Of a DNA stretch of 54,586 nt, positions 4,807-40,043 are shown piece after piece. The notes below the pieces were generated by a model. The model was not told the DNA's origin, searched no databases, and saw only the letters and a list, made by a program, of their open reading frames with translations. Every line of letters begins with the position of its first letter. Position 1 is the stretch's first letter. The stretch is taken from NCBI GenBank assembly GCA_964590575.1, contig CAZPWM010000010.1, forward strand, positions 1 through 54,586. The letters run 5' to 3'. Position numbers and translations under genes: made by a program. Source of the stretch: an uncultured archaeon. GTDB lineage: Archaea; Asgardarchaeota; Thorarchaeia; Thorarchaeales; Thorarchaeaceae.

Positions 4807-5765
4807 AGCTTCTTAATTTGTTTACTGCGCGACAAGAGCACGACTCTACTCTCTACCTGCTCATCGAGAACATGGTATCCTGTTAATGTAGCAAGATTCT
4901 CTGAAAATGCGTGAATTTCCCTATGCGAAGGTGCATTATTTTTGTCTAGACGTCCTCTTGATAATCCCAAAAACATGTATCCTTTCACTTCGATGAAATC
5001 AGGCTCTCCCATATCGATAAGTTTCGAATATGCCCGTACATCATGCATATTTCGGTTAGCCACCATCGTCAGTCTGTTGACAGTTCTAGTGTTAAGAGAC
5101 CGCAGTGTTTGTTGTGACCTCAGAATGCGATTCCATCCATCTTTAATACCAGGCTTGCAAAGAACCTTGTAGGTGGATTCATCCGGCGCAGCCAATGTAA
5201 CATAAAGTTGCGTCGGCAAAGACATAGTCGATAGTACATCTGGTTGCGTACCGTTAGTCACAAGGAATGAAGTCATACCTCTATGATGAATTTCATCGAT
5301 GAGGTCACTAATCAGAGGATGAAGAGTTGGTTCTCCTGCTAAGGAAATGGCCACGTGTTTGGGATCCCTTGCTTCATTGTACTTCTTCTCTGGAACTGAA
5401 GCTCCCGCTTCCGGATTGTAACCTCCAAGAGATCTAAGATTTGCTATCAGTACAGCATCCATCAATTCACTCACAGGTAGTACATCTTTTTCAGAAACAT
5501 CAAGTTGGTTCCAGCTCACTCCAATATCAGCAGGAGTCACTCGCCAACAGAACTCACAGCTTTGTGTGCATTTGTCAACTACAGGTGTCATCTGTAGACA
5601 TCGATGCGATTGGATACCATAGAATTTCTGTTTGTAGCATGAAACATCATGTAGAAGTGCCTTCTTTTGCCACTGACATGCTTTATAGGCGCCTCTTCTG
5701 CCAAGTATATGATACCCTTGTTTTTCGAGCTTTTCGATCAGCTCAATTGGCATGTCAGAGTTCAA
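4803..5765 (-). CDS. taw1: 4-demethylwyosine synthase (radical SAM)
   Basis: CYKQKFYGIQSHRCLQMTP, CTQSCEFCWR, HVAISLAGEPTL, FIEVKGYM. Confidence 0.95.
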   Translation of the reverse strand: MNSDMPIELIEKLEKQGYHILGRRGAYKACQWQKKALLHDVSCYKQKFYGIQSHRCLQMTPVVDKCTQSCEFCWRVTPADIGVSWNQLDVSEKDVLPVSELMDAVLIANLRSLGGYNPEAGASVPEKKYNEARDPKHVAISLAGEPTLHPLISDLIDEIHHRGMTSFLVTNGTQPDVLSTMSLPTQLYVTLAAPDESTYKVLCKPGIKDGWNRILRSQQTLRSLNTRTVNRLTMVANRNMHDVRAYSKLIDMGEPDFIEVKGYMFLGLSRGRLDKNNAPSHREIHAFSENLATLTGYHVLDEQVESRVVLLSRSKQIKKL

Positions 5766-17835: not shown

Positions 17836-18702
17836 ATGCAAAACATAAGATCTCTTCGAGCTACCGATAAAGAAGACATCCTTGAGATTGCCAAACACAC
17901 TTGGGACGGACATGACTATCTTCCCTATTTCTTTGATGCTTGGATACATGACAGAAATTCACATACTGCTGCCATTGAGAAAGATGGACATGTCATAGCT
18001 TTGGCAAACCTTAGAGTGATTGAGAATGGTCGCACCGGATGGATGGAGGGGCTCCGTGTTCATCCTGATCACAGAGAACAGGGATTTGCATCGATTCTAA
18101 CGCATCATGTCGTTAAACTGGCAAAGGAAATCCCAGTTGAACGTATTCGTTATACAACCGCTGTTGATAATGAAACATCTCTCCATCTTGGAGAAGAAGT
18201 TGGGATGAAAAGAAAATTTGATCTTGCAGTTCATTGGCAAGACAAAATAGATGAGGTATCATGGAGTCCATCAGCTAGTCCAATCAGGGATGCTTCTATA
18301 GAGGAGTTATACCCTCATCTAATTGAGGCTAAATTGCTACCTCATAATGTGATTATCTATGATTGGAAAGCTCTAGATGTTTCGTATGATGCCTTAGAAA
18401 AGATAGCATCGCTCTCAAAACTCTGGGTGCAAATAATTGATGGAGTGATGGAGTCATTCTCTCTTGGTTTCATCAATGAGGATCCAAATGGACCACAATG
18501 GAGCTTCACAATCTATGCAAGAGATGACGCAAAATTCCTTGATCAGCTTGCACATCATATGAAGATGACTTCTGCTGCTGAATGCAAGACCATCTTTATG
18601 ACGTACCAAATGGACTTTGTAGACACACTCTATTCGCTTGATTGGGTGCACCCATTTGAGGACGAGGCGATGGCACTGACTCTTCTAGAGAGAGTTCTAT
18701 AG
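17836..18702 (+). CDS. GNAT family N-acetyltransferase
   Basis: W.GHDYLP, WMEGLRVHPDHREQGFAS acetyl-CoA binding motif. Confidence 0.85.
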   Translation: MQNIRSLRATDKEDILEIAKHTWDGHDYLPYFFDAWIHDRNSHTAAIEKDGHVIALANLRVIENGRTGWMEGLRVHPDHREQGFASILTHHVVKLAKEIPVERIRYTTAVDNETSLHLGEEVGMKRKFDLAVHWQDKIDEVSWSPSASPIRDASIEELYPHLIEAKLLPHNVIIYDWKALDVSYDALEKIASLSKLWVQIIDGVMESFSLGFINEDPNGPQWSFTIYARDDAKFLDQLAHHMKMTSAAECKTIFMTYQMDFVDTLYSLDWVHPFEDEAMALTLLERVL

Positions 18703-18719
18703 AAACTAAAATGAAGAAA

Positions 18720-18734
18720 TGGCACCGTGGTGGG
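18720..18734 (-). repeat. Degenerate tRNA 3'-end-like repeat (A0)
   Basis: Minus strand CCCACCACGGTGCCA then TTTCTTCAT; flank resembles that of A1. Confidence 0.4.
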
Positions 18735-18774
18735 CTAGCCACAATCAACATATGGGGTTTCCACTTCCCTAAAC

Positions 18775-19770
18775 TTGAAGAAAATGAGCGGGTTCAAAGT
18801 GGTCCTGGCAAGTGGTGCTGAGCATCTGAGAACAAGATTCTCTGAACTTGGGTTCCAAGTCTTCTCATCAGAGATGAACTTTGATGAAAAACGGTTCTTC
18901 CCTAACTCCGACCTCTATGTAAAAATAGCTAACATCGAAGAACTTGCTGACCAGAGGGTTGTTGTCGTTCAGAGCTGTACAGGTTCATCACCAGCTGCGA
19001 ATGAGTATTTTACGACATCTGACCGTATTCAAGAACTCATTCTTATCTTTGATATTCTAAAAAACCCCTGCAAGGTCGAAAAGATAGCTCACAAGACATA
19101 CAAAACCCACTCTCTAGCACAACCTAGAAGCATTGATGTTGTACTCACTTTCCAGCCTTTTGCACTTCAGGATAAAGCGTTCAGCACTGGAGAGGCAGTG
19201 TCAAGTCGGTGTGCAATGCAATCAATTGCAAATCTCTGTGATAGACTGTGGCTTGTAGAACCGGTTGTAGACAGAGCTCTGCCTTGGGTCGAAGAACTAG
19301 CTGCGCAAGGAAAGTATCAGATGATTAACTTCACTCAGGACATCATTGAATATGCCGCAGCTAAATTCGGGTTCACGGAATATGTCTTAACGGCTCCTGA
19401 TGAAGGCGCACAGAAAAGATTCGGGGTGCCTGGCTTTAGCAAACGCCGCTCTGATTCCTTTACGATAGATATGACAGGAGAGCTCGATGTTTCAGGCAAA
19501 AACGTCATCATTTTGGATGACCTCACTAAGAGTGGGAAGACGCTCCTAAGAGCTGCAGACATGATGCGAAATCAAGGAGCCGCTGATGTTGGGTTCATCG
19601 TCCTGCATGTAACACCTATTCGTGATGGGGGTGAGAGATTGTTGACAGACCTGATTGCTAAGAGCAACAACAAAATCATTACCTCAAATACCGTTCATAC
19701 TGTGGCTTTCTGTGATGAGAACCCAGAACTCGTGTATGACATAGTCGAGAAACTTGTAGACAATCTCTAG
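18775..19770 (+). CDS. Divergent ribose-phosphate pyrophosphokinase-like phosphoribosyltransferase
   Basis: FPNSDLYVKI, VVQS, ALQDKAF..GEAVS, APDEGA, IILDDLTKSGKTL PRPP-binding loop. Confidence 0.75.
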   Translation: MKKMSGFKVVLASGAEHLRTRFSELGFQVFSSEMNFDEKRFFPNSDLYVKIANIEELADQRVVVVQSCTGSSPAANEYFTTSDRIQELILIFDILKNPCKVEKIAHKTYKTHSLAQPRSIDVVLTFQPFALQDKAFSTGEAVSSRCAMQSIANLCDRLWLVEPVVDRALPWVEELAAQGKYQMINFTQDIIEYAAAKFGFTEYVLTAPDEGAQKRFGVPGFSKRRSDSFTIDMTGELDVSGKNVIILDDLTKSGKTLLRAADMMRNQGAADVGFIVLHVTPIRDGGERLLTDLIAKSNNKIITSNTVHTVAFCDENPELVYDIVEKLVDNL

Positions 19771-19791
19771 CTACATTGAAAGATGAAGAGA

Positions 19792-19806
19792 TGGCGCCGC
19801 CGGTAG
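19792..19806 (-). repeat. tRNA-Asn 3'-end fragment (A1)
   Basis: CTACCGGCGGCGCCA, 14/15 match to tRNA-Asn 26053-26067, followed by a pyrimidine tract. Confidence 0.9.
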
Positions 19807-19886
19807 TCACTCATCCAAAAATTGACTCAACTCAACCTTTGGCGATTCAACCCAATCGAAATTCTTGTCCTGAGTGACCAATGGTT
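19807..19886 (-). pseudogene. Possible C-terminal gene remnant (PIN-like tail) ending at A1
   Basis: Frame PLVTQDKNFDWVESPKVELSQFLDE*; its TGA abuts the repeat. Confidence 0.35.
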
Positions 19887-21353
19887 TTATTCCATCAAAC
19901 CCAATCTTGATAGTCTAGTTGAGCCGAAACCTAGGCTTGCCACCAAATCGTCGATGATTTGTTTGATTGGATCTGCGAAATACATCAGAAGGAAAATGAA
20001 AATGAAGATGGATATCATGATTGCCCATCTCATGTACCGTTCCCTGCGTTGATCTGAGAAATTGCGCGCCAGCTCTGCAAGGTCCCTCGCCCTAGTCCGA
20101 TAATACCACGCGAGGCCTCGATTGGTGATGGAATAACGCCTTTCTCGCTCAGCGATGAGCCCGCTCCTCTCGGCCTGTCTTATATTCTTCATAATGCCTC
20201 TCTGCTTTATGTTGTGGAATCCAATCACGGCTTGAACATCGTAGTACCGATGACCGAGGTTGACTCCTCTGAGAAAATCGTGTTCAATGACATCTGCTTC
20301 CTTGGGGCCGGTTGCGAGCCTTCCGAGAACCCAATACGTCATGAGGTCCTCATACATCTCATTTGCGCCGAGACGAATTGTGTCTACATCAATCTCGTCA
20401 CCTGCAGCTCGCAGTTCTCTGAGGGTAGATATGCTCTCCCATAGGATAATCCCGGATATCGCAAGCGCAACCAGCCCGTCTACAAAGTAGTATCCGAAGA
20501 TTGAGAAGGTGAAACCAATCATAACACCGTAGGCGACCTTGATGTGGGAGGTGTCCTCTTTGGCATCCCCAATTAAAGCCAAATTCCCTGAGCTCCGCCC
20601 GACCATCACCTTCAACCAGATGAGACCTCTATTGATTACTATGGACAAGAACTCTACATAATAGGCCTGAACCGACCATTGAACGGGTTCATTTGACAAT
20701 AGACCAGCAATTGCACCCACTGCAAGTAGTGCCCCAGTCATTGTCATTACTGTGATGATTGCTAGAGCGCCAAGTCTATCCCGCTTGTACTTGATGCTGA
20801 ATGCGATTATACCTACAACAAGAAGATCTGTCAGATTCTCAATGCCTTCGTTCAATATAGCATCACTATGAATTGACAGGCCAATCCAAATCTTCACCGA
20901 AGCCAGAAGAAGCAGAGCAAGCGTAGAGAGAACAAGTACAATACGCTCCGTAAGTAAACGCCTCATCCAGTACCCCTGATGGACTATCTCGAGCCTGCCA
21001 TATCGAATCGTTTCACGTCCACGATGACTGAGGCTATAACGACCTTCAGATTCTTGGATTAGGTCGTCATTCAAACCATGCTGGATGGCCTCATCAATGT
21101 CGATTGAGGTCATGGTGGGTCGTCGAAGCCTGAGTGCAAATATGCCGTCCAGATGGTCATAGAGTCCTTCGCGTGTATTGATTCCTTCGTGGATCGCACA
21201 TAGTATTGCATAGAGGAGTGAAATGGCCGGCTCACTCCTTAGAATGCTTCTAACTGGGAAACTGTAGTGTCCCTGTCTGATTTCTTGATGACTAAAGCTC
21301 CAGAGTTCTCTAAATGGGTCCGCGGAACCTTCAATCACCGGTGGATTAGCCAC
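19887..21353 (-). CDS. Cation diffusion facilitator-like membrane protein flanked by winged-helix-like domains
   Basis: Six TM segments with S.A(I)L.EG.E..TD and N.AL..DA.ED..H in CDF register; RYSLSHRG and RYSITNRG wing motifs. Confidence 0.65.
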   Translation of the reverse strand: MANPPVIEGSADPFRELWSFSHQEIRQGHYSFPVRSILRSEPAISLLYAILCAIHEGINTREGLYDHLDGIFALRLRRPTMTSIDIDEAIQHGLNDDLIQESEGRYSLSHRGRETIRYGRLEIVHQGYWMRRLLTERIVLVLSTLALLLLASVKIWIGLSIHSDAILNEGIENLTDLLVVGIIAFSIKYKRDRLGALAIITVMTMTGALLAVGAIAGLLSNEPVQWSVQAYYVEFLSIVINRGLIWLKVMVGRSSGNLALIGDAKEDTSHIKVAYGVMIGFTFSIFGYYFVDGLVALAISGIILWESISTLRELRAAGDEIDVDTIRLGANEMYEDLMTYWVLGRLATGPKEADVIEHDFLRGVNLGHRYYDVQAVIGFHNIKQRGIMKNIRQAERSGLIAERERRYSITNRGLAWYYRTRARDLAELARNFSDQRRERYMRWAIMISIFIFIFLLMYFADPIKQIIDDLVASLGFGSTRLSRLGLME

Positions 21354-21533
21354 TCGAAGGCCTCCATTCCAAGCGAATTAGCCAATAATACATCACTGCG
21401 CTGCTAAATATCTTATGCAGAGTGACATTCGGAGAAGGAGTGGACCATTCGGCGATACGACAGTCAGATTTGGTTATGATTAACAAAATTGGTTCTCTTG
21501 GTAAGGTTTTTTGTAAATTAGAAAGGAAAGAAA

Positions 21534-21548
21534 TGGCCCCGCCGGGAG
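21534..21548 (-). repeat. tRNA-Asn 3'-end fragment (A2)
   Basis: CTCCCGGCGGGGCCA, 14/15 match to the tRNA-Asn 3' end, followed by TTTCTTTCCTTT. Confidence 0.8.
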
Positions 21549-21596
21549 TTATGCCTCCAATAAACTGTGCAAAATGCGATGTCTTTCACAATCAGC

Positions 21597-23552
21597 TTAG
21601 GATGCTCTTCTTCGAATGTATCCAACTACGATAATTGTTATAGTCGCAATCACAGCAATTACTCCAAGACCTACTACAAGGGGGAACTCCCCGGCTATCT
21701 GAATGTTTCTGGTCGATAGAGAATGAATACCTTGCTCCGCTAGTTCGACAAGGATATAGTCATCATAGAGTAAGATCACCTCATCGGGCTCTCCTGTCAC
21801 TTCAAGAGTCAGAGTAGTCGTGCCATTTATCCACACGACTCTGTCATTCAGAACCTCACCCGCAGAGCCAAGGACTTTGATGGGAACCTGCTGTGAGTAA
21901 GAATATGGATTATAGACCTCATTTTCATCCTCAACGGTCACCAATAGAGTGCCCTCCTCTCTATCATAGACAGCTCCAGTGAATGAATAGTCAGGTAAGC
22001 GGGGATTGTTAAACCATGGTAGAAAGAACCAATCCAAAGACCCCCCACACACCGTCTCCAGCGCAGCTTGTAGACCTGCCAATGTGCCAACTCTGAAGTA
22101 ATTCTGCTTCAAGAAGAGCGAGAGGCCCTCGATAAACTTCTGGTGACCTATCTCGACACGCATCTTCTCAAGCACGAGTGGAGCCTTAACATACTCAAGG
22201 TATGTCACCAACTCAGGCATATCATAGTTTGACTGGTTTATTGCAGCGTCTATCCCATTTTCTATATAGAACACCCTCACAGTATCTAGATATCGATCAT
22301 ATTGGAAGTACTCCCAGTCTTGATGATAGTACTCGCCAAAGTAGTTGTGAGACCAGCAGGTCATTCCCTCGTCAAGAAAGCCCCAGTCAATGCTGTCTAT
22401 TCCCACAAGTTGCGACCACCATTGATGAATCACCTCATGAACAACCACTAACTCAAGATAATTGGGGGGTAGGTTTCCTAGTTTCATTGCCTGAAGGATG
22501 CCATTTGTTGCATACACCTGGCAGGGATATTCCATGCCGCCGTAGAATGCGAACTGCTCCACAACGTTGAGCGTTGAATAGGGATAGATGCCATAGGTTG
22601 TGTTGAAAAGCAATAGGGTTTCACTTGCCCAGTTCAGTACATCGTCTTCCCACTCTGTCTGAGAGTCTGGGATGTAAAAGCTTGATACCTTGACAGACCC
22701 TACCATCATAGACTCCATGACATAGTATCGAGAGGCTGAGAATGTGACCTCGCGTACCGGCAAGCCAGGACTGAAATGGTAAGTAGTGTCGCCTTCATCG
22801 CTATAGCTCTCAATTAATTGACCCGTTGCCGCGACCACCATGTCATTAGGGACTTCAACCAAGAACTCATAGAATGCCATATCAAGGTAGAAGGGGTCCC
22901 CGAAATTGACATACCCATCGGTGTTCCAGCCATCATACTCATCGTAGACGCATGGCATGGGATAGCAACTGGCAAACGTGAATATTCTCGATTGGTCGAT
23001 GTCACTACCCTGAGAGTTGGCTCTGTCTAGACCATCAGGTAGAGTGGTCTTGAATGAGATCTGAAACGAGGTGGTGCCACCTGATTCCACAGGCGCCGGA
23101 AGATTGACCCACATGATCTCGCCCTCCGACACGATATTGTAAGACAAAGGAACCTCAGGAGCATCGATTGTGGTCACATTGAAGATCTCGATGGCTCCCT
23201 GTCTACTAGTGTAATTCATACCGGAAGGATAGAGGTGGAACGGAATACTTGAGAAGGCAATTGGGTCGTCATTGTAATACTCAATGGATAGATTACCAGC
23301 AACAGTTGATTGAGTATCATCCAGCGTGACAGACAAATTGATGTGCGAGAAACTAGTCCCTGTGAAGTTTCCCCTTGAGAACCAGTTGTAGTCACCGAGG
23401 TCTGCCTGACTCAGCGAGGGCTGAATGTCTGTTCCCAGATTTCTCTGAAGGCTTGGTAGTGCCGAAACTGGAAGCATTATGGAAAAACCAGTGGACACAA
23501 TCATAAGAGCTATTGAGAAGACAAGGACTCTCTTCAAAATTACAACGACCAC
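21597..23552 (-). CDS. Secreted, membrane-anchored M1 family zinc aminopeptidase
   Basis: Signal peptide, GGMEYP, HEVIHQWW then LDEG gluzincin motif, Y.K, C-terminal TM followed by RRR. Confidence 0.9.
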   Translation of the reverse strand: MVVVILKRVLVFSIALMIVSTGFSIMLPVSALPSLQRNLGTDIQPSLSQADLGDYNWFSRGNFTGTSFSHINLSVTLDDTQSTVAGNLSIEYYNDDPIAFSSIPFHLYPSGMNYTSRQGAIEIFNVTTIDAPEVPLSYNIVSEGEIMWVNLPAPVESGGTTSFQISFKTTLPDGLDRANSQGSDIDQSRIFTFASCYPMPCVYDEYDGWNTDGYVNFGDPFYLDMAFYEFLVEVPNDMVVAATGQLIESYSDEGDTTYHFSPGLPVREVTFSASRYYVMESMMVGSVKVSSFYIPDSQTEWEDDVLNWASETLLLFNTTYGIYPYSTLNVVEQFAFYGGMEYPCQVYATNGILQAMKLGNLPPNYLELVVVHEVIHQWWSQLVGIDSIDWGFLDEGMTCWSHNYFGEYYHQDWEYFQYDRYLDTVRVFYIENGIDAAINQSNYDMPELVTYLEYVKAPLVLEKMRVEIGHQKFIEGLSLFLKQNYFRVGTLAGLQAALETVCGGSLDWFFLPWFNNPRLPDYSFTGAVYDREEGTLLVTVEDENEVYNPYSYSQQVPIKVLGSAGEVLNDRVVWINGTTTLTLEVTGEPDEVILLYDDYILVELAEQGIHSLSTRNIQIAGEFPLVVGLGVIAVIATITIIVVGYIRRRAS

Positions 23553-23694
23553 CTGTCACTTTATCCTGAAGAATCAGCTCAAAACGCATTAAGACTACCG
23601 ACTCAAGCAATCAAAAGGTGATTATGTGGATGAATGCTGGAATCTGTCTGTTTCTTCCTATCTTTGGCTATGATTGACAGACCATGAGAAGAGA

Positions 23695-23709
23695 TGGCGC
23701 CGCCGGTAG
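23695..23709 (-). repeat. tRNA-Asn 3'-end fragment (A3)
   Basis: CTACCGGCGGCGCCA followed by TCTCTTCTC. Confidence 0.9.
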
Positions 23710-23761
23710 CAAATATTGATGTGTCTTCAAAGCAATTCACATCAAGAAGGGAGTTTTAGAA

Positions 23762-24010
23762 ATGGAAGCAACTGAGAAATGTCCATCTTGTGGTGAGGAC
23801 ATGGACCCCGGTTTCATTGTGTCTCAAAGAACTATCTCTTGGTGCGACCTCGTTCCTAAAGTGATCTGTTACTGTGGAGAACCTCTGTCGAAGGGGTATG
23901 CTATCTGTGCATGTGTGTCTGGTTATCGATGTAAAAGATGCAAAATCATCCTTTATCAGGAAGTTGAAAAAGCACCAAGAAAGGAAACAGATGATTGGCC
24001 CGCCGGCTGA
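23762..24010 (+). CDS. Small Zn-ribbon protein (DUF6487-like)
   Basis: KCPSCGEDMDPGF...W...YRCKRCKII pattern. Confidence 0.7.
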   Translation: MEATEKCPSCGEDMDPGFIVSQRTISWCDLVPKVICYCGEPLSKGYAICACVSGYRCKRCKIILYQEVEKAPRKETDDWPAG

Positions 24011-24029
24011 CCCAAAAATGAATTAGAAG

Positions 24030-24044
24030 TGGCGCCGCCGGTAG
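24030..24044 (-). repeat. tRNA-Asn 3'-end fragment (A4)
   Basis: CTACCGGCGGCGCCA, 1 nt after the TAA of the 24046-24693 gene. Confidence 0.9.
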
Positions 24045-24045
24045 T

Positions 24046-24693
24046 TTATGAGATAATTCCTACCATCGCAGTTTCGATATACTTTAGTCTCTCAATGTGT
24101 TCATCGTTGTACACAAACTCGTATTCAGATTTGGGTACTGCTGCAAGTTTTCGTAATGCACTAAGGAATGAAGAATCACTTCTTGCAGCTTCCAAATCTG
24201 CTTCCATCTTCTTTGAGTTTGATTTCCTATGTTTCAAATAATAAATAATTCCTGAAACTATCATTATTGGGTATGATGCAAGAGCCATTTCAAGATTGTA
24301 AGGTATCGGTGGATATGATAATATATAGTCAATCACCTCAAAGCCCGTGAATGCTGATCCCCATAATATACTCGCAAACAATAGATAAAATGCTACCCGC
24401 TCTGAAAGGTCAACACACTGCTTTCTCCTCAGTTGCACCCTTATGTATGATAGGAGTTCAGAAGGATTCAGTGCATCTATTTGCCATTTTTCAAGAATGA
24501 GAATTTCCTTTCCCTCTTTATTCTTGACCATATATGGATCATTATCCAAATTCTCATCATCAAAGTGTTGATGTTCGACTATGCACTCCCTATAATTTGG
24601 ATCATCACTAAGAATTTCTTCTAATTGCTTGCATTTGTCATCTCGATAGAACCCACTATATTTTACTTCAGAACTATCGATATCAACACGCAT
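24046..24693 (-). CDS. Hypothetical membrane protein (2 TM)
   Basis: 215-aa AT-rich ORF with two hydrophobic segments; weak resemblance to an M48-like layout without HEXXH. Confidence 0.65.
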   Translation of the reverse strand: MRVDIDSSEVKYSGFYRDDKCKQLEEILSDDPNYRECIVEHQHFDDENLDNDPYMVKNKEGKEILILEKWQIDALNPSELLSYIRVQLRRKQCVDLSERVAFYLLFASILWGSAFTGFEVIDYILSYPPIPYNLEMALASYPIMIVSGIIYYLKHRKSNSKKMEADLEAARSDSSFLSALRKLAAVPKSEYEFVYNDEHIERLKYIETAMVGIIS

Positions 24694-24775
24694 TCTCTTT
24701 CACACCCACTCCACAATAACAGGAGTCACTTGAAAACTAATGAGGATTTCTGAAAAAGGAAAGTTAGAGGAGAAG

Positions 24776-24790
24776 TGGCGCCGCCGGTAG
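24776..24790 (-). repeat. tRNA-Asn 3'-end fragment (A5)
   Basis: CTACCGGCGGCGCCA immediately after the TAG of the 24791-25780 gene. Confidence 0.9.
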
Positions 24791-25780
24791 CTACTTCTTC
24801 GACTTCGCGAATCTACTTTCAAAAGCCATATCGAATGCATTATCAAAATACACTTGAGCTTGAGATACAGTTCTCGGATCGTTTGTACAGATTCCTGCCT
24901 CCAAATTCCTGTCCATGGAGGGCGCCACTAGATTTGCAGAACCAATGTAAAGTTCCTTGTCATCGACAATCACAATCTTTGCATGAAGATGGTCCGCTGT
25001 TTCGATACTGAACTTTCTTTTGTGAAATCCTCTGACTGTTTCCTCGTGGTATGGGTCATCACCCGCTCTTCGGGTCAGAATTCTAATTGATACGTTCCTT
25101 TCGTCCCTTACTTGAGTCAATTTATCTTCTATCTCTTTTATACCCCATATCCACGGAGAAGCAATGAGAATCGTCTTCTCCGCCTTATCAATCATCTCAA
25201 GAAGCTTGCCGAGTATTTCTCTGTCCTTTACAAAGGACACATCCGTGGATGTTGGTTCTGGATCCGGGATATCAACCAATTCCATGGCATAGGACTGGAC
25301 TTGTTCACGTATCTCATCAGCAATCCCTAAGACATCAGAATATCGACTCAGGTCGTATCTGTCATCAGAGAAATGCAGTCCGTTCTTTGCAATGTCCTCC
25401 AGCTGAGCAGACCACTCTTGCAACTGCTGCTTGGGCAAGTAGACCAATGGTTTCTCCAAGTCTTTCCATATCTCACGGAAATCACCCTGTATCTCCATGA
25501 TTTCATTATAGCGTTCCAAGTCATAATCGGTGGCTGCGTATTCCTCTGCAATCTTCACAATCCTAAAGAGCCTCTTCCCCCATCGTTCCAGAAGTTCTCT
25601 CTGCAACATTATTATGTCGCTATCTTGTTTTTCCTCCTTACATACGGAGCAACCTTCCACTTTGAGGTACCATTTTCCACAGTCTTTGCACTTGACGACT
25701 AGGCCTTGGTCACGCATTCCAAAGTGTTCTGCACAGAGTGGATAGAACCCACTTCGTTTTCCACATATCTGACAGACCAA
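24791..25780 (-). CDS. Zn-finger, tandem Nudix_N-like, phospholipase D (HKD) domain protein
   Basis: CxxC clusters; two W...L..IA....YDL.RY repeats; SPW and HAKIVIVD..YIGSANL..N.EAG single HKD motif. Confidence 0.75.
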   Translation of the reverse strand: MVCQICGKRSGFYPLCAEHFGMRDQGLVVKCKDCGKWYLKVEGCSVCKEEKQDSDIIMLQRELLERWGKRLFRIVKIAEEYAATDYDLERYNEIMEIQGDFREIWKDLEKPLVYLPKQQLQEWSAQLEDIAKNGLHFSDDRYDLSRYSDVLGIADEIREQVQSYAMELVDIPDPEPTSTDVSFVKDREILGKLLEMIDKAEKTILIASPWIWGIKEIEDKLTQVRDERNVSIRILTRRAGDDPYHEETVRGFHKRKFSIETADHLHAKIVIVDDKELYIGSANLVAPSMDRNLEAGICTNDPRTVSQAQVYFDNAFDMAFESRFAKSKK

Positions 25781-25856
25781 TCAAACCACCTCCGGTCCCG
25801 TTGATGACTAGGTCGTGTCCGGGTATTAAGACCATCGCCTTTTCACGAAACAACTC

Positions 25857-25873
25857 GACAGCAATGTTAATAT
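25857..25873 (+). promoter_or_regulatory. BRE/TATA-like promoter of tRNA-Asn
   Basis: ACAGCAATGTTAATAT about 30 nt upstream of the tRNA; the same motif is conserved upstream of both 5' fragments. Confidence 0.6.
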
Positions 25874-25898
25874 TGAAACTAGGAAAATCAGCCGAACA

Positions 25899-26067
25899 GC
25901 CGCCGTGGCTCAGTAGGTAGAGCGACAGTAGTTGTACGCGAACAGCGTCATACCGCTAAAGCCTGTTACCTTTCGATTCTGGTAATCGAGAGCCAGACAG
26001 TTGTTGGTCGGAGGTTCGAGAAACTTCATGACTTCCATGACGTTTGAAGACCCTCCCGGCGGCGCCA
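25899..26067 (+). tRNA. tRNA-Asn(GTT) with three introns
   Basis: Acceptor GCCGCCG/CGGCGGC, G73, CCA encoded. Removing about 25929-25961, 25969-25998 and 26021-26050 gives a 76-nt cloverleaf with GTT at 25965-25967. Confidence 0.92.
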
Positions 26068-26096
26068 TTAACCATAGTTAATTATCTTTGACCAAT

Positions 26097-26690
26097 TCAT
26101 CTCTCTCTACGGTCTAATTTCCTGCGAGTTTTTTCATCAAGTTCTCTTAGCCCCTTTTTGTACTCCTCAGATTTTTCATCTTCGGGAATCAGGTAGTGGA
26201 ATTGAGTGAATTCCCCATCTACTGTCTTGAAGAAATCGTCAACTCTGTCTGGAATATAGGGTACTAACTCCAAATCGTGCCCTCTTTCATGTAAAGCCTT
26301 GAGAACATCTCTTGTCCGAACTACACCGAGTGTTCCATCAGTCTTGGATTTACGTAGAATCTTTAGAAGGCACTTAGCCTTATCAGGTAAGTTACGGAGA
26401 ATCTCAGCTTCTTTTTCATTTAAGATACGGATGAACCAGACCGGCTTCCCTATTGAATCTTCAGAGCTATCATCATAATCAAGAATCTTGTCGACTATCC
26501 AATTATCAAGAGCGTATTCAATAACTGTGCTAGCATCTGTATTAGCTCCCGGGTTGTCTTGAAGCGTTTTATGAAGCCTATTCACCAAATCCCTCTTAGA
26601 CATCTGTTTCGTTTTTGTATTTTCCAGTAATTCAATGAGGATAGCGACAGCTTCAGATTCAGTTGTGTTCATTTTCCATCGTCCCACCAT
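26097..26690 (-). CDS. Hypothetical protein
   Basis: 197-aa ORF overlapping the end of the upstream gene; possible winged-helix segments. Confidence 0.65.
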   Translation of the reverse strand: MVGRWKMNTTESEAVAILIELLENTKTKQMSKRDLVNRLHKTLQDNPGANTDASTVIEYALDNWIVDKILDYDDSSEDSIGKPVWFIRILNEKEAEILRNLPDKAKCLLKILRKSKTDGTLGVVRTRDVLKALHERGHDLELVPYIPDRVDDFFKTVDGEFTQFHYLIPEDEKSEEYKKGLRELDEKTRRKLDRRER

Positions 26691-28720
26691 TTGTTTACTT
26701 CAAACTCGTGATCCCTAAATTGCTTCGTTGCCTCTGCTACATATTTCGGATGTTTCTTTATTATGTCCTTCATAATCTCTTTTTTGACTGCATCATTGGG
26801 AGCCGCTATCATTCCTAGCTTAACTGATTCGAGTAATGTTTCTGGTTCAGCTGTCCAAGCAACAGAAACTCGACTTGTTCTCTCGTGAAAACGAATTGTA
26901 TATGGTTTCGAACGATAGTCAATTCCCAAACTTCTAACAATCTCAATTTGATCCTGAATCAATCTATTGGGATTCTCATATATGCAATTCCACAGGCTTT
27001 CTGCAGTATTTCGAACTTGAGTAGATTCTGAATGCCTTAAATCTTGTAACTTACCATAGTTAAGTACCCAACTGTAACTTTCCTTTTTGCCACTATCTTT
27101 AATCAAATCGATTTCTCTTTTCCCGACTTTCGGTTCGATTCCATAGACTTCAGCTTTACTAGCAGCATCAAGGATGTTGGTATGTGTCCACTGTATTCGC
27201 TTCTTGCTAATAGTTCCATCTTGGGGAACCAAATCTTCAATCAATGCGCATCTTGCCCTCGTTGAGAACTCCTTGATTGCTGAAAAAAGTCCTGGATTTT
27301 GGACAGATCTGTCTCCTGAAGGAATACCAAGACGTTCTAGCATTACGCCCAGTGGTGTTGGGAGGTACGAAACATATAGATTATCGCGCTCTCTGAACTT
27401 AGGGTTAAGTTTGATATCTCCAAAAATCTGCAGATCCCTCTCAACAATTCTAATTCTGCTCATTCTTGATTCAGCGTACTCCAAAGTTCCATTTGGTTTG
27501 AGGTGGCAATCGCTTATAGCTATTGCAGTAAGTCGAGATAAAGCCACCTCGAATTCTTCCCCCTCTGGAAATCTTGGATTTGTAATTCCTCCTCTCCCAC
27601 TAGCTTTAGTAAGCTTTGATACTTCTCCATTAAGATCGCATAGAGTCTTCCCGGATACGTCATTCATCAAGTTGACATAATCTCCACGAATTCGTTGAAG
27701 TTCATGATTGAAACAGGAATACTTCGAGTCTTCCACAATCATCTGAGGGAGTAGTTCATGCAAATGCTTCACAATCGCGCCGCAGTTATTATCTTGAAGT
27801 TCTAGAGATTCTCCAACATCTTCTACGTACCTATCAAATGTTGTTTCGTCACGAAAGTAATAGTATAGACTATCATAGACATTTTCAAGACTCGTTGAAT
27901 CAAGGTCGGGTTTCCAAACATAGATTCGTTCCTCAACTAGCCCAAATCGAACTTCCTCATTTTCGTCAAGACTTTCTTTTGCTTGGTAAAATGCCTGTTT
28001 GAATGCATCAAGTTCCTGAGACGAAACTCCCAAGCTCCTATTGATGTCTATGTAGAACGTCCTTTCTGACTCTGGTAGACTGTTACCGATTTCCGATAAA
28101 AGCTCAGTAAGATTCTCTCGATTCAATTCCTTAGAATCTAGATCTGAAAAAACATCTCTCACCCAACTTTCATCCAGTTCTTGAATTCTAGTTGGCACCA
28201 CCTCCACTATGTCTTGTTCTTCGCGATTCTCACGAAGCTTGAGTTCCGAATGATTTTCTACAGCGTGGTCGAACTCCTCTTTCGTTCGAATCTCACCGAG
28301 ACGAGGTTCCTGCTCTTCTTCATGTCCCTCCAATGATTTATGTGTGAGTTTCTCCTTTTCTGCAACCTTCTCCTCCGAATCGTCAATGTTCGCCAGAGCC
28401 TCCCTGAGCTTGTCTTCAGTTGACTCGCTGGCTCTCTCCATCTCATTTAGTTCCTCAAAAGCATCTTCCAGCTTACTGCTTATTTGCCCCTCTTCTGCCT
28501 CGCTTTTCTTCAGTTTCTCCATTGCATACTGTAGCAGCTCAGAGGCCGATAGTTCATCTACCTCCTCAGATTCGGAACTCTCATTCTGCGCCTCACGAAT
28601 ACGTCGACTTTCCGAGACCAACTCGGCAGCAGTCAAGTCCTCAGCATGGGTTTCCTCAGATTCCTCACCGTACTCCCTTCTACGACGCCTCACACCCTCA
28701 CCGGATACACCCTCCACCAT
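26669..28720 (-). CDS. Protein with acidic coiled-coil N-terminus and C-terminal LAGLIDADG-like endonuclease domain
   Basis: LSRLTAIAISDCHL and ALIEDLVPQDGTI about 90 aa apart, with LERLGIPSGDR between them, as in two-motif LAGLIDADG domains. Confidence 0.6.
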   Translation of the reverse strand: MVEGVSGEGVRRRRREYGEESEETHAEDLTAAELVSESRRIREAQNESSESEEVDELSASELLQYAMEKLKKSEAEEGQISSKLEDAFEELNEMERASESTEDKLREALANIDDSEEKVAEKEKLTHKSLEGHEEEQEPRLGEIRTKEEFDHAVENHSELKLRENREEQDIVEVVPTRIQELDESWVRDVFSDLDSKELNRENLTELLSEIGNSLPESERTFYIDINRSLGVSSQELDAFKQAFYQAKESLDENEEVRFGLVEERIYVWKPDLDSTSLENVYDSLYYYFRDETTFDRYVEDVGESLELQDNNCGAIVKHLHELLPQMIVEDSKYSCFNHELQRIRGDYVNLMNDVSGKTLCDLNGEVSKLTKASGRGGITNPRFPEGEEFEVALSRLTAIAISDCHLKPNGTLEYAESRMSRIRIVERDLQIFGDIKLNPKFRERDNLYVSYLPTPLGVMLERLGIPSGDRSVQNPGLFSAIKEFSTRARCALIEDLVPQDGTISKKRIQWTHTNILDAASKAEVYGIEPKVGKREIDLIKDSGKKESYSWVLNYGKLQDLRHSESTQVRNTAESLWNCIYENPNRLIQDQIEIVRSLGIDYRSKPYTIRFHERTSRVSVAWTAEPETLLESVKLGMIAAPNDAVKKEIMKDIIKKHPKYVAEATKQFRDHEFEVNKWWDDGK

Positions 28721-28728
28721 GAAACCCC

Positions 28729-31461
28729 CTAGGCTTCAACACCCTTGATGGCAACCAGAATGTCTGCGAGTATAGCGGTCTCCTTTGGCTCTTGCAACAT
28801 TCCCGCAGCGTGAAGCAGGAGTCGCTCAGCGAAGGGTATCTGCTCAGATTTATTGGAACAGAACTTTTCGGCCACCACCGTCAACATCCTTGCTACTGGA
28901 CCAGGGTTTCCCCTAGATGCTGAACCAACACGACTCATGTACTCGTCAACGAAGAGAGGGGTGTTGACGATCTCAGAGATGTCGGTCTCATGGTCCCGTG
29001 CAATCTGGACGGCCTGCATTTCGGGCTGTACTATGATTGGAGCGCTCGGCTTAATACCTCTAAGCAGGTCCTTCATCTCGTCGGTGAGGGGGTGGCTCTC
29101 TGCAAGTTCAGGATTGGCCTCAAAGACCTCTCTCATAGCATCTCTCACCATATCGTCAGTCCACTCCCGCTCAGGCAGTGGGTTCGTGAGCAGATAGTTG
29201 AGGGGTGCCACCTGCACATTGGTTGGTACACTCGCGGTCTTGATTCGTGTCACCACCTCGCCAATTCCCATACCCCCGATGTGCTCGATCTGGGCATCAC
29301 TGCAGAGTGCTTGACGACCAGCAAGCAGACGTTCCTCAAGGTCGGTCAGGGTGTGGATGATAATGTTAGAAGGTAGTTTGACTATCTCCGGAGGAAGACT
29401 GCTTATGAGCTGGTCCACGATGGCTAAGGCCAGACCTGTTCCCCTCTGTGTTCGTAGCATCTCTGCGATGTTGGAGACCGCCTTCAGCGTGGACGTGGGC
29501 TCTGCATACCCTCCCTGATTCTGCGTTCCTTTGAGGAATTGGTGAGCCTCCTCCAGCACAAGGAGATGACTCACCTCCTTCTTTGGATTAGCGACCAGAT
29601 ACTCACTGATTCCCACCGTGAGAGCACCAATCAGGAGCGCTCTGTCCTCAGGGGAGAGGTCTCGCATCTCGATGATTGTGGGATGAGCAAGGAGTTCGGG
29701 GATTGTCAGACCCTTAGGGGTGTTGAACATGTCCACCAGGATCTCGTTCCTGAGCATACTCCTGAGTCTAGCGTCAAGTGCCCCATAGAAGTCCTTCTTG
29801 AGGTCCTCACCATAATCTAGGTGAGTCTTGGCCACTTGTTGAACTGCCTCATAGAGGTCTGAGAGAAGAATGGGTCGACCTCTGATGTTACCCATGCGGG
29901 ACCAGCCACAGTTCTCATACATAGTGTTGAAGATGTCATCAAAGTGCATAGAGATGACGCCGTCGGTTGGGAGAGCTGCCACATGGACATCTATCATCCT
30001 GTCGATGAATTTTCCCACTGGAACCTTTGGTGGGACATTCCACATGTTATAACGGAGAGGAGCGATGTCAGGGGTTCCAGCAGTGAATATGCGGAACTCA
30101 GGATAAAGATCCTTCAGAACTCGCCAGTCATTGACATTTCCAGGTGTGAGGATGATGGGGGTGACGTCGTTCCTGTAAGCCTGAGCAACAAGACTAACAC
30201 AGGTGGTGGTCTTTCCGTATCCTGTGTTCCCGTAGATTCCAATATGAGAACCAAGCAATTCTCGGACTAGTCCATAGGGTTGAGTTTTCTGAGGTGTACC
30301 GTTTCGTATCGCATACCCAAGGAGGATGAGTTGTTTCTGAGAGAACTGCCAGACAGAATCTGAATTGTTGTGAGTACTCCTGTTCCTAGGAATGAGAGCT
30401 TTCTTGGGAGTGGGTTGTATTGGTTTGACTTCAAGCTGGAGGTTGGTTTCCTTCTCCTTCTCCATCTCTGACAGATCAACACTCGCGACAGAGAAGTTCT
30501 CCCGTCGAGAGACCCTGATGCCGAGGTCTACGCGTGGGAGGGCAAAGTAGGTAGCGGTCTCCTCTGGAGTGAGAACTGTGTGGTCGCCCACGGGTCTACC
30601 TGCTAGTGCCTTCTCGAAATCCTTTCGTCTCTTCTTGATGACGACCCGAAGGTCCTCCTCCTTGTCAGCTGGGGTTATTCCACTCATGAGGATGGACATC
30701 ATTCGTTTTGCTTGTGTTTCAGCGTATTTCTTGTCCTGATGCCAATGAGTGACGGTCACTGAAACTTTTCCTAGGTATCGACTGCTCAACCGCTTGACCT
30801 GTCTACTGAGGCGTTCAGCCTCCCGGGAGGCGCTAGCACTCACTCTAGTGGTGGACTGTTGTGAGTCGGGAGAGAAGAATCCCGGAGCTGAGACCACCCT
30901 CTGAGACCGTTCCATGGCATTCTCATAGGCGCGTTCCATTGCTCGGACATGTCGTTTTCCAGACTTTGTTGGTTCGATGAAGACTTGGAGGATGACATTG
31001 TCTAGACTCTGGAGTACCTCTCCGGCGGCATCCATTGGATCAATCTGGACTGTGTGGTGTCCAGTTTCTTCAGGGGTTTCGGGTTCTCCAAGAAGACACG
31101 CGGTGACTCCGCTAAACTCAAGATTGACATTATGTCCCTTGAACTCCTTGGCTGGAGCGAGGATAAACTTCGGTAGGTAAGCTGCCACAGAAGTTGTTAG
31201 TGTAGTGAGATTCTTATTCAGTTCTTCCTGTTTTCGTGTCCAAGTGAGAAAGAATACCCGGGTTTTTTCGTTGATGTGCTCAAGTCGAAGACCCACAGGA
31301 ACCTCAGCATGAATCATACCTCTGAGGATGCTCATGAACGATTTTCTATAGTTGGTATCCCGATTCTCTGCATCCGATGTCCTCAGGTAGTCTTCTGGAA
31401 TCTCAACTACCTCCACCGCTCCGACTTGGAAATCACCCATCCATGACTCTAACATAACCAT
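28729..31461 (-). CDS. HerA/VirB4/TraG-like P-loop ATPase
   Basis: HIGIYGNTGYGKTT Walker A, LLVLEEAHQ Walker B, R..G....VDQ; long N-terminal domain. Confidence 0.85.
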   Translation of the reverse strand: MVMLESWMGDFQVGAVEVVEIPEDYLRTSDAENRDTNYRKSFMSILRGMIHAEVPVGLRLEHINEKTRVFFLTWTRKQEELNKNLTTLTTSVAAYLPKFILAPAKEFKGHNVNLEFSGVTACLLGEPETPEETGHHTVQIDPMDAAGEVLQSLDNVILQVFIEPTKSGKRHVRAMERAYENAMERSQRVVSAPGFFSPDSQQSTTRVSASASREAERLSRQVKRLSSRYLGKVSVTVTHWHQDKKYAETQAKRMMSILMSGITPADKEEDLRVVIKKRRKDFEKALAGRPVGDHTVLTPEETATYFALPRVDLGIRVSRRENFSVASVDLSEMEKEKETNLQLEVKPIQPTPKKALIPRNRSTHNNSDSVWQFSQKQLILLGYAIRNGTPQKTQPYGLVRELLGSHIGIYGNTGYGKTTTCVSLVAQAYRNDVTPIILTPGNVNDWRVLKDLYPEFRIFTAGTPDIAPLRYNMWNVPPKVPVGKFIDRMIDVHVAALPTDGVISMHFDDIFNTMYENCGWSRMGNIRGRPILLSDLYEAVQQVAKTHLDYGEDLKKDFYGALDARLRSMLRNEILVDMFNTPKGLTIPELLAHPTIIEMRDLSPEDRALLIGALTVGISEYLVANPKKEVSHLLVLEEAHQFLKGTQNQGGYAEPTSTLKAVSNIAEMLRTQRGTGLALAIVDQLISSLPPEIVKLPSNIIIHTLTDLEERLLAGRQALCSDAQIEHIGGMGIGEVVTRIKTASVPTNVQVAPLNYLLTNPLPEREWTDDMVRDAMREVFEANPELAESHPLTDEMKDLLRGIKPSAPIIVQPEMQAVQIARDHETDISEIVNTPLFVDEYMSRVGSASRGNPGPVARMLTVVAEKFCSNKSEQIPFAERLLLHAAGMLQEPKETAILADILVAIKGVEA

Positions 31462-39205: not shown

Positions 39206-39312
39206 TGGTGGGCCCGAGGGGAGTTGAACCCCTGACCGTTCCCCTATCCGAACGAAATGTCCAGATATACAGGTTATGAGCCTGGTGCTCTACCAAACTG
39301 AGCTACGGGCCC
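39206..39312 (-). tRNA. tRNA-Ile2(CAT) with about 30-nt intron at the variable loop
   Basis: GGGCCCG acceptor, A73, CCA; loop CTCATAA; hairpin insert at about 39238-39267. Ile2 is preferred over Met because of the acceptor stem. Confidence 0.85.
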
Positions 39313-39935: not shown

Positions 39936-40043
39936 GCCCCGGTAGTGTAGACCGGCCCAGCATCTAGGGTTTTCGACCCTATGGTTGTTTAGAATTCCTA
40001 AACAGCGGGGAAGACCCGGGTTCGAATCCCGGCCGGGGCACCA
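39936..40043 (+). tRNA. tRNA-Glu(TTC) with about 30-nt intron near position 43/44
   Basis: GCCCCGG/CCGGGGC acceptor; TAGGG-TTTTCGA-CCCTA; hairpin insert at about 39982-40011; GGTTCGAATCC; CCA. Confidence 0.92.

Follow-up and report, generated by a model that had tools for sequence, protein, structure and literature searches.

Copies of a tRNA-Asn gene 3' end bound single-gene cassettes in a Thorarchaeaceae genome and probably represent recombination sites

We report that a 54,586-nt stretch of DNA from an uncultured archaeon of the Thorarchaeaceae (contig CAZPWM010000010.1, hereafter the window) carries, next to a tRNA-Asn gene, an array of short blocks that are copies of the 3' end of this gene and its trailer, and that these blocks bound small gene cassettes and often lie directly behind stop codons. 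The blocks are probably copies of an attachment (att) site used in site-specific recombination at the tRNA-Asn 3' end, the stop codons being placed at the block edges by compaction of the cassettes. Comparison with the host genome (G000, a 3.4-Mb assembly, 91%-complete) and with its relatives (coded G002-G031) provides insight into how cassettes are shared and reordered between species. The array system is pervasive in the genus with no integrase in sight, and we consider this to be of more interest than the stop-codon pattern itself.

On the minus strand of the window there are five copies of the 15-nt core CTACCGGCGGCGCCA (A1 to A5; coordinates in Table 1), each of which runs on into a pyrimidine-rich trailer to give a copy of 22 nt. 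Searching with the 15-mer and allowing up to three mismatches returned seven matches in the window, compared to 0.21 expected from shuffled sequences, and within the assembly the 15-mer is confined to the tRNA-Asn locus. The tRNA-Asn gene itself accounts for the sixth match (26053-26067, plus strand), which lies at its 3' end: the core is identical to tRNA positions 62-76, and these last 15 nt of the gene are inverted relative to the array. The seventh (29955, three mismatches, within an open reading frame, ORF, for a HerA-like protein) was taken as a chance match. One more block, the degenerate distal A0, matches the core at 9 of 15 positions (counted by eye) and was missed by searches with up to three mismatches. 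A weak additional core match on the minus strand at 23995-24006 (CCGGCGGGCCAA, three mismatches), 17 nt after A4 and within the end of the DUF6487 gene, may be due to chance or be a second decayed copy. A scan of metagenome contigs with the 15-mer revealed no arrays among the matches listed, which comprised at least 120 single chance matches, mostly on unrelated G+C-rich contigs, and a few tRNA-Asn genes.

Among 29 junction types (for the definition see below) conservation extends from the C of CTACC to approximately +22/23, i.e. about 8 nt past CCA (yTTCTTCT), and the block consensus is CTACCGGCGGCGCCA-yTTCTTCT. The intact tRNA-Asn genes of G006, G010 and G014 carry the same trailer (cttcttc). 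Because the block includes the gene trailer, the copies derive from the tRNA gene and its flank and not from the mature tRNA, which points to an att site at the DNA level. By our own reading of the sequence the block has no stop codon in any frame. CTACC is present in four of the five window copies, whereas the resident tRNA gene has CTCCC with a matching T-stem; several relatives have tRNA genes of the CTACC type, and the mismatch hints that cassettes may have been imported from CTACC-type lineages. A reading of the copies as parts of split tRNA genes joined by trans-splicing was dropped, since genes appear to end in the upstream flanks and, of the acceptor stem, the copies seem to contain just the 3' strand.

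The tRNA-Asn(GTT) gene has introns at about 25929-25961, 25969-25998 and 26021-26050, and in its unspliced form it escapes both ARAGORN and Rfam at the gathering threshold; the G018 ortholog is intron-less and is directly called as tRNA-Asn by ARAGORN. The third intron, located in the T-loop (59/60), ends 2 nt ahead of the att block, and an unrelated insertion is present at the same T-loop place in 6 of 10 tRNA-Asn genes of the relatives. Such a T-loop intron may protect the left half of the integration target or change it. Two more intron-containing tRNA genes of about 104 nt (39209-39312 on the minus strand and 39936-40040 on the plus strand) were detected by Rfam and not by ARAGORN.

The sequence-only reading had stated that the repeats sit directly behind stop codons, and on the minus strand this is indeed the arrangement. 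Specifically, the TAG that closes the 329-aa PLD ORF abuts A5 (offset 0), the TAA of a 215-aa ORF lies at offset +1 from A4, and at offset 0 a TGA closing a 35-codon frame precedes A1 and a TAA closing only a 15-codon frame precedes A2; A3 is the exception, with no stop ahead (..atatttg). At A0 a TAG is present at offset 0 (18735-18737), in the upstream region of a plus-strand gene, where it ends no ORF. Thus, a stop is found at offset 0-1 in four of the five copies A1 to A5 (P about 0.001 against the positional background of the same flanks; P-values here and below are indicative). With respect to A1, the TGA was correctly identified by the earlier reading and the label of a PIN-tail-like frame was not: the 35 residues match, end to end and with 19/35 identities (54%), the C-terminal end of a 435-aa protein encoded on G000 contig C8, in which Pfam identifies the domains UbiD, UbiD_C and UbiD_N (E 3e-11 in the pairwise comparison, E 1.3e-7 in tblastn against the whole genome). 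This remnant overlaps, in another frame, the last nine codons of the cation-diffusion-facilitator (CDF)-like ORF, so that today's CDF gene runs into what is left of an older gene's 3' end. The expectation that the short frames have homologs was borne out at A1. At A2 the 15-aa frame, of a length at which homologs may escape detection, returned only itself in tblastn with PAM30 against the whole genome (best other match a 7-mer, E 0.06); the A2 spacer is not homologous to its G027 counterpart. The same type of search gave no convincing homologs for the short frames of G014 and G027.

Stop enrichment at offset 0-1 relative to shuffled flanks in related genomes had been set as a test beforehand. 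The exact motif is present in 16 of 61 genomes: in G000, in 14 of the 27 further genomes searched from its genus, and in one of nine from other genera of the family, where only the tRNA has it. Eighteen regions were fetched and scanned with up to three mismatches. Matches to the reverse complement of tRNA 5' ends (containing GAGCCA), isolated low-similarity matches (window 29955, G027 2988 and G002 3309), 10 tRNA genes (TTCGAG upstream) and two junctions with less than 60 nt upstream were dropped, and A0 was outside the set. The 40 junctions kept were clustered at ≥60% flank identity into 30 types. A stop is located at offset 0 in seven types and at offset 0-1 in 12, compared to 3.6 expected from offsets 2-56 of the same flanks (P 1e-4) and 4.6 from shuffled flanks (P 0.001), and hence the enrichment foreseen was observed. 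For the 25 types that remain without the five represented in the window the numbers are four at offset 0 and eight at offset 0-1 against about 3.0 (25 x 0.121, derived; P 0.007). The stop directly abuts the block also in G017a, G022 and G027, it is absent at offset 0-1 in 18 of the 30 types, and ORFs of at least 75 codons end at -1 to +7 in 11 of 30 (own count). Within one cassette family, encoding the membrane protein F1, the stop offset is +1 in G000, +2 in G006, -1 in G014 and G018, and +58 in G027 (derived from coordinates).

Further tRNA-3'-end arrays were found by a k-mer screen of G000 (contigs C19, C22 and C6; Table 1), and at least four tRNA loci in this genome hold such arrays. Co-oriented ORFs in the three additional arrays end 6-27 nt ahead of the block, in one case 191 nt. 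The C19 block is multicopy in 24 of 24 genus genomes searched; C19 and 20 array regions gave 70 matches, 26 of these were removed as tRNA genes by a heuristic T-stem filter, and the remaining 44 junctions correspond to 33 types. In this family the stop codons are not enriched at the block edge (offset 0-1 in 3 of 33 types, 3.5 expected, P 0.70), and long ORFs end 1-22 nt from the block. That stops abut the block is thus particular to the Asn family, which has the shortest block, and does not reflect a rule of cassette formation. On G000 contig C102 (1096-7506, minus strand) we also noted seven copies of AAGGGTGCTCAACA spaced by 0.7-1.5 kb, each followed by a similar 'gg..gggaaaggtcccgttagcc' stretch; this dispersed repeat may be a 5' region that the members of a paralogous gene family have in common.

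The units between the blocks in the window are 335-2161 bp long with one ORF each. Two of them (A3/A4 and A1/A0) hold opposite-strand genes, and an upstream region of at least about 70 nt precedes the co-oriented ORFs. The same units recur in other species: the DUF6487 unit (324-413 bp) is present in six genomes with different neighbours, and the F1 unit (about 730 bp) as well as M1 peptidase, methyltransferase and PRC-barrel cassettes are also common to several species. The M1 cassette has 85% DNA identity to G027 over 2.1 kb compared to 72-74% for the flanking GNAT and F5 regions, which suggests that it may have been exchanged between species, with unequal constraint as the alternative. Its homology to G027 ends 8 nt past the M1 stop, and the 40-48 nt between stop and block differ. 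Among the cassettes of the relatives are those encoding methyltransferases, PRC-barrel, M55 peptidase, beta-helix, serine-hydrolase (beta-lactamase family), APH-family phosphotransferase, flavin reductase, radical SAM and deaminase proteins. The earlier proposal that the repeats delimit cassettes, and that the analogy to integrons is apt, agrees with these single-gene units being common to species in different orders.

The locus is syntenic across the genus, with MutS-like, metallophosphoesterase, F5 and GNAT genes on one side and F15 and a ZIP transporter gene on the other. In G031, which belongs to another genus, the order is ZIP-tRNA-F5-MutS without array, representing an empty site. The copies are direct and downstream of the tRNA gene in G014, G006 and G018, while G027 has copies on both sides with the left arm inverted, and in the window and G002 the array is inverted relative to the tRNA. 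Degenerate distal copies are present in G027 at 5533 and 7689. Compared to G006, A4-F1-A5 is collinear, whereas the tRNA body points the other way and is shifted by the PLD gene. This arrangement is consistent with a flip of the tRNA body through recombination of two blocks in opposite orientation.

Contigs from four public DNA runs were compared with positions 18500-27000. In run X5, from a different study, one contig (depth 5.3) has 21422 joined to 19789 with five extra letters, and the order is CDF 3' end, UbiD tail, block and CDF upstream region; this joint may represent a tandem or a circular CDF cassette, and the contig fits either. Another X5 contig (depth 13) carries PLD and block, followed by DNA unlike the window. 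In X1, possibly the source sample, a minor contig (depth 2.2) has the M1 cassette ahead of the A4 core. The link consists of 33 nt that resemble the A2 spacer (roughly 75% similar, by eye) and end with TGA directly at CTACC; since this variant has a TAG two codons upstream, the A2-spacer frame is not conserved. The run contigs show breakpoints that coincide with blocks, and yield no rates or mechanisms.

We propose that the site targeted comprises tRNA positions 62-76 and about 8 nt of the gene trailer. A small circular DNA carrying its own block would integrate at this site, whereby the tRNA is rebuilt and the older block copy pushed outward, and repeated integration would turn the locus into a row of cassettes that each hold one gene and end in a block. 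Oppositely oriented blocks would then have recombined and thereby flipped the tRNA body, leaving the array upstream and inverted. The block is expected to be constrained in that it must be able to serve as a tRNA end, and since all its frames are open, an ORF that reads into it would be extended by a neighbour-dependent tail. With compact cassettes and the short Asn block, the last free stop position would be the block edge. The stop pattern would thus be mostly a by-product of compaction; strong compaction was one of the two routes offered by the sequence-only reading, and it fits the data.

Several observations weigh against recombination at the tRNA end as the source of the arrays. No recombinase domain was found in the array ORFs scanned in the window and in the relatives, PF00589 and PF16795 gave no matches in the 91%-complete G000, and 12 integrase loci from 9 of 28 genus genomes carry none of the four blocks. 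An attP-bearing virus or plasmid was not found, the pattern scan of viral contigs for block plus trailer giving zero matches. The variant junctions are low-depth assembled contigs (2.2-13x) and not reads. The stops before A2 and A0 and those of several short frames in the relatives close no demonstrable gene, and live gene ends therefore leave part of the enrichment unaccounted for. The array genomes are closely related and the 30 junction types not fully independent; because of this, and of the arbitrary clustering threshold, the P-values are indicative only. As to the enzyme, no PF00589 tyrosine recombinase of any kind, Xer-type included, was detected in G000, where PF00239 identified one small serine resolvase on an unrelated 2.2-kb contig, and PF00589 matches in the genus (9 of 28 genomes) are mostly on small contigs. 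We infer that transient elements may provide the recombinase in trans, or that it may come from a family not yet recognised.

Could the arrays instead be debris of large viruses or plasmids that integrated repeatedly at tRNA-Asn and were whittled down by deletions, such that the stops are the ends of the elements' last genes? The leftovers at A1 (UbiD tail fused to the CDF ORF) and A2 (48-nt spacer), the degenerate distal copies (A0 and those of G027) and the absence of integrase from the arrays are in keeping with this, and arrays that arise by re-use of a single site are known for tyrosine-recombinase elements, as described in PMC6563490 and bioRxiv 10.1101/2020.12.28.424599. However, the same very small units, block-bounded on both sides, recur in several species with other neighbours (DUF6487, F1), a cassette is more similar between species than its flanks, and one cassette is found in a tandem or circular joint. 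Independent decay would not yield identical small units, while a single origin followed by vertical descent stays compatible with the data. We therefore consider debris an unlikely, though not negligible, explanation. An RNA-linked capture step was the other route of the earlier reading, which had cassette ends formed exactly at ORF ends. In such a step mRNAs joined to or primed from a tRNA 3' fragment would be reverse-transcribed into the locus with a CCA tail. Capture through RNA would account for the directly abutting stops (A5, A1 and A2 in the window, and those of G017a, G022 and G027) and for the CCA at the block end. It fails with the trailer: the block runs about 8 nt past CCA and matches the gene trailer, and the CCA is gene-encoded. 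Moreover, there are cassettes with opposite-strand genes and upstream regions, the stop offset drifts within the F1 family, gene leftovers lie at A1 and A2, and a second array family, that of C19 (3/33), is without stop enrichment. In addition, mRNA 3' ends would carry a 3' untranslated region rather than end at the stop codon. The stop-codon pattern provides no evidence for RNA-mediated capture, which we regard as highly improbable, and formation exactly at ORF ends is not supported by the same observations.

The block might also be a terminator or RNA-processing signal borrowed from the tRNA gene, selected at gene ends and spread for that reason. Pyrimidines make up 88% of the first 12 nt of the trailer. 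Runs of at least four T within 40 nt after CCA are present in 14 of 29 junction types compared to 40 of 183 (22%) control ORF ends, and those of at least five in 7 of 29 types compared to 13 of 183. Oligo-T stretches act in transcription termination in archaea, and it is plausible that the T-rich trailer may serve as a terminator, as the sequence-only reading had suggested for the tRNA tail. The placement right behind stops is also what such a signal would predict. On the other hand, the copies are present only beside the tRNA gene, they also follow the starts of opposite-strand genes (A3, A0), exact tRNA identity would not be needed for a terminator, and the G+C-rich 15-mer is not known to have a terminator role. 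Neither an attC-like nor a terminator hairpin was detected at the block beyond chance: five 62-nt regions fold no better than shuffles (DNA-fold z-scores +1.1, +0.6, +1.4, -1.3 and +1.0). Selection as a signal thus appears very unlikely as the origin of the arrays. At A5 (24749-24810, minus strand) the last PLD codons GAAGAAGTAG are complementary to the trailer (CTTCTCC) and form an inverted repeat of 7-8 bp around the block; it is absent at the other copies and is probably due to chance.

Taking recombination at the tRNA end as the more general frame, a bolder proposal is that the genus runs an integron-like cassette system without a resident integrase. The tRNA 3' exon or end would be the universal joint through which species exchange cassettes of one gene each and several tRNA genes accumulate stacks of them, the tRNA body, lying between two block copies of opposite orientation, would be flippable so that both sides fill while the tRNA stays intact, T-loop introns would possibly be part of a conflict by altering the left half of the target, and the recombinase would act in trans or be of an unrecognised family. 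We put this forward tentatively, as a possibility that is rather doubtful in its entirety. Asgard archaea have large accessory gene sets whose acquisition is poorly known, and the locus provides a concrete, repeated architecture for gene gain.

Among the other features (Table 1), the ribose-phosphate diphosphokinase-like ORF has no homolog within the loci of the relatives. A search of genome contigs with the F1 protein gave two loci, one of which is the G006 contig, and a protein-cluster look-up placed F1 with hypothetical archaeal membrane-protein clusters only; the corresponding look-up for F5 gave no match. Directly past the tRNA 3' end (26097-31461, minus strand) there are genes for a 197-aa protein of unknown type, a 683-aa coiled-coil protein (F30) and a 910-aa HerA-like ATPase, and the F30 family also adjoins the tRNA gene in G002. 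These three genes possibly form a module for defence or DNA translocation that arrived through the same site; no distal block copy was found beyond it.

Table 1. Features of the tRNA-Asn locus in the window and other tRNA-3'-end arrays in G000
Feature	Location	Strand	Details
A0, degenerate distal block	18713..18734	-	core 18720-18734 CCCACCACGGTGCCA + trailer TTTCTTC; sequence read
Ribose-phosphate diphosphokinase-like ORF, 331 aa	18775..19770	+	opposite-strand cassette gene between A1 and A0
A1 block	19785..19806	-	core 19792-19806 + trailer TCTCTTC
UbiD-family decarboxylase remnant	19807..19914	-	last 35 codons + TGA; pairwise match, tblastn
CDF-like ORF, 488 aa	19887..21353	-	3' end read from UbiD remnant
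A2 block	21527..21548	-	core 21534-21548 CTCCCGGCGGGGCCA, 2 mismatches, + trailer TTTCTTT
A2 spacer, 48 nt between M1 peptidase stop and A2	21549..21596	-	15-codon frame ending TAA at block
M1-family peptidase ORF, 651 aa	21597..23552	-	cassette gene
A3 block	23688..23709	-	core 23695-23709
DUF6487 zinc-ribbon ORF, 82 aa	23762..24010	+	opposite-strand cassette gene
A4 block	24023..24044	-	core 24030-24044
Membrane-protein ORF F1, 215 aa	24046..24693	-	function not assigned; TAA 1 nt before A4
A5 block	24769..24790	-	core 24776-24790
PLD-family (DrmC-like) ORF, 329 aa	24791..25780	-	TAG abuts A5
tRNA-Asn(GTT), three introns, encoded CCA	25899-26067	+	ARAGORN on four exons joined by coordinates
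tRNA-3'-end array	contig C19:22487-25284		5 copies of 22-nt block
tRNA-3'-end array	contig C22:27522-36232		3 copies, inverted relative to own tRNA
tRNA-3'-end array	contig C6:25922-30288		2 copies + tRNA

With respect to known systems, the locus resembles integrative elements that target tRNA genes: in both (PMC4383910, PMC6563490), copies of the tRNA 3' part are present at the joints (here direct relative to the tRNA gene in some genomes and inverted in others), integration would leave an intact tRNA behind, the site is used repeatedly so that arrays arise, and the att sites are short. The median att length given for thaumarchaeal elements is 17 bp (PMC6563490), and the same source describes how tyrosine-recombinase elements of archaea and bacteria build arrays by using a single att site repeatedly. 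Unlike these elements, the units here are mostly single genes of 0.3-2.2 kb and lack genes for integrase, replication or structural proteins, the tRNA body itself has an inverted orientation between copies of the block, and an integrase of the usual family was not detected in the genome. Large elements integrated at tRNA genes, and not small cassette arrays, are what the paper on Heimdallarchaeum describes (PMC8813620). Integrase-driven chromosomal inversions between tRNA-derived sites are described for Thermococcales in PMC5495485; the likeness is an archaeal inversion between oppositely oriented copies of tRNA-gene sequence, and the differences are the small inverted segment (the tRNA body in G027, the tRNA body and the PLD gene in the window) and that no plasmid integrase was identified here.

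Integrons have been reported in Archaea, as outlined in bioRxiv 10.1101/2022.02.06.479319 (PMC9668308). As in integrons, the cassettes are compact, mostly with one gene, the recombination site is placed right after or overlapping the stop, and cassettes are shared and reordered between genomes. Unlike integrons, there is no intI, attI or Pc, no tyrosine recombinase was found at the locus or in the genome, and the head of the array is a tRNA gene; the cassettes are present in both orientations with room for their own promoters. The site is a 23-nt tRNA-end copy without hairpin, compared to the folded attC of integrons, which is 57-141 nt in size. With neither intI nor a folded attC, the locus is integron-like in its working and fails the defining features of an integron.

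Tycheposons of Prochlorococcus are islands that adjoin specific tRNA genes with partial tRNA copies scattered within (bioRxiv 10.1101/2020.12.28.424599). They share with the present arrays growth by successive tRNA-proximal integration, accessory cargo and associated inversions, but they carry tyrosine recombinases and replication modules and are few per genome, whereas no such domains were found in the scanned array ORFs. Moreover, the partial tRNAs are dense here, one every 0.3-2.2 kb, and the host is an Asgard archaeon. Our literature search, in which subscription journals were not covered, gave no description of dense arrays of tRNA-end-bounded single-gene cassettes in Asgard archaea. Finally, if active, the arrays would be the archaeal equivalent of integrons and tycheposons, and short recombination sites of 23 bp could be drawn from them.

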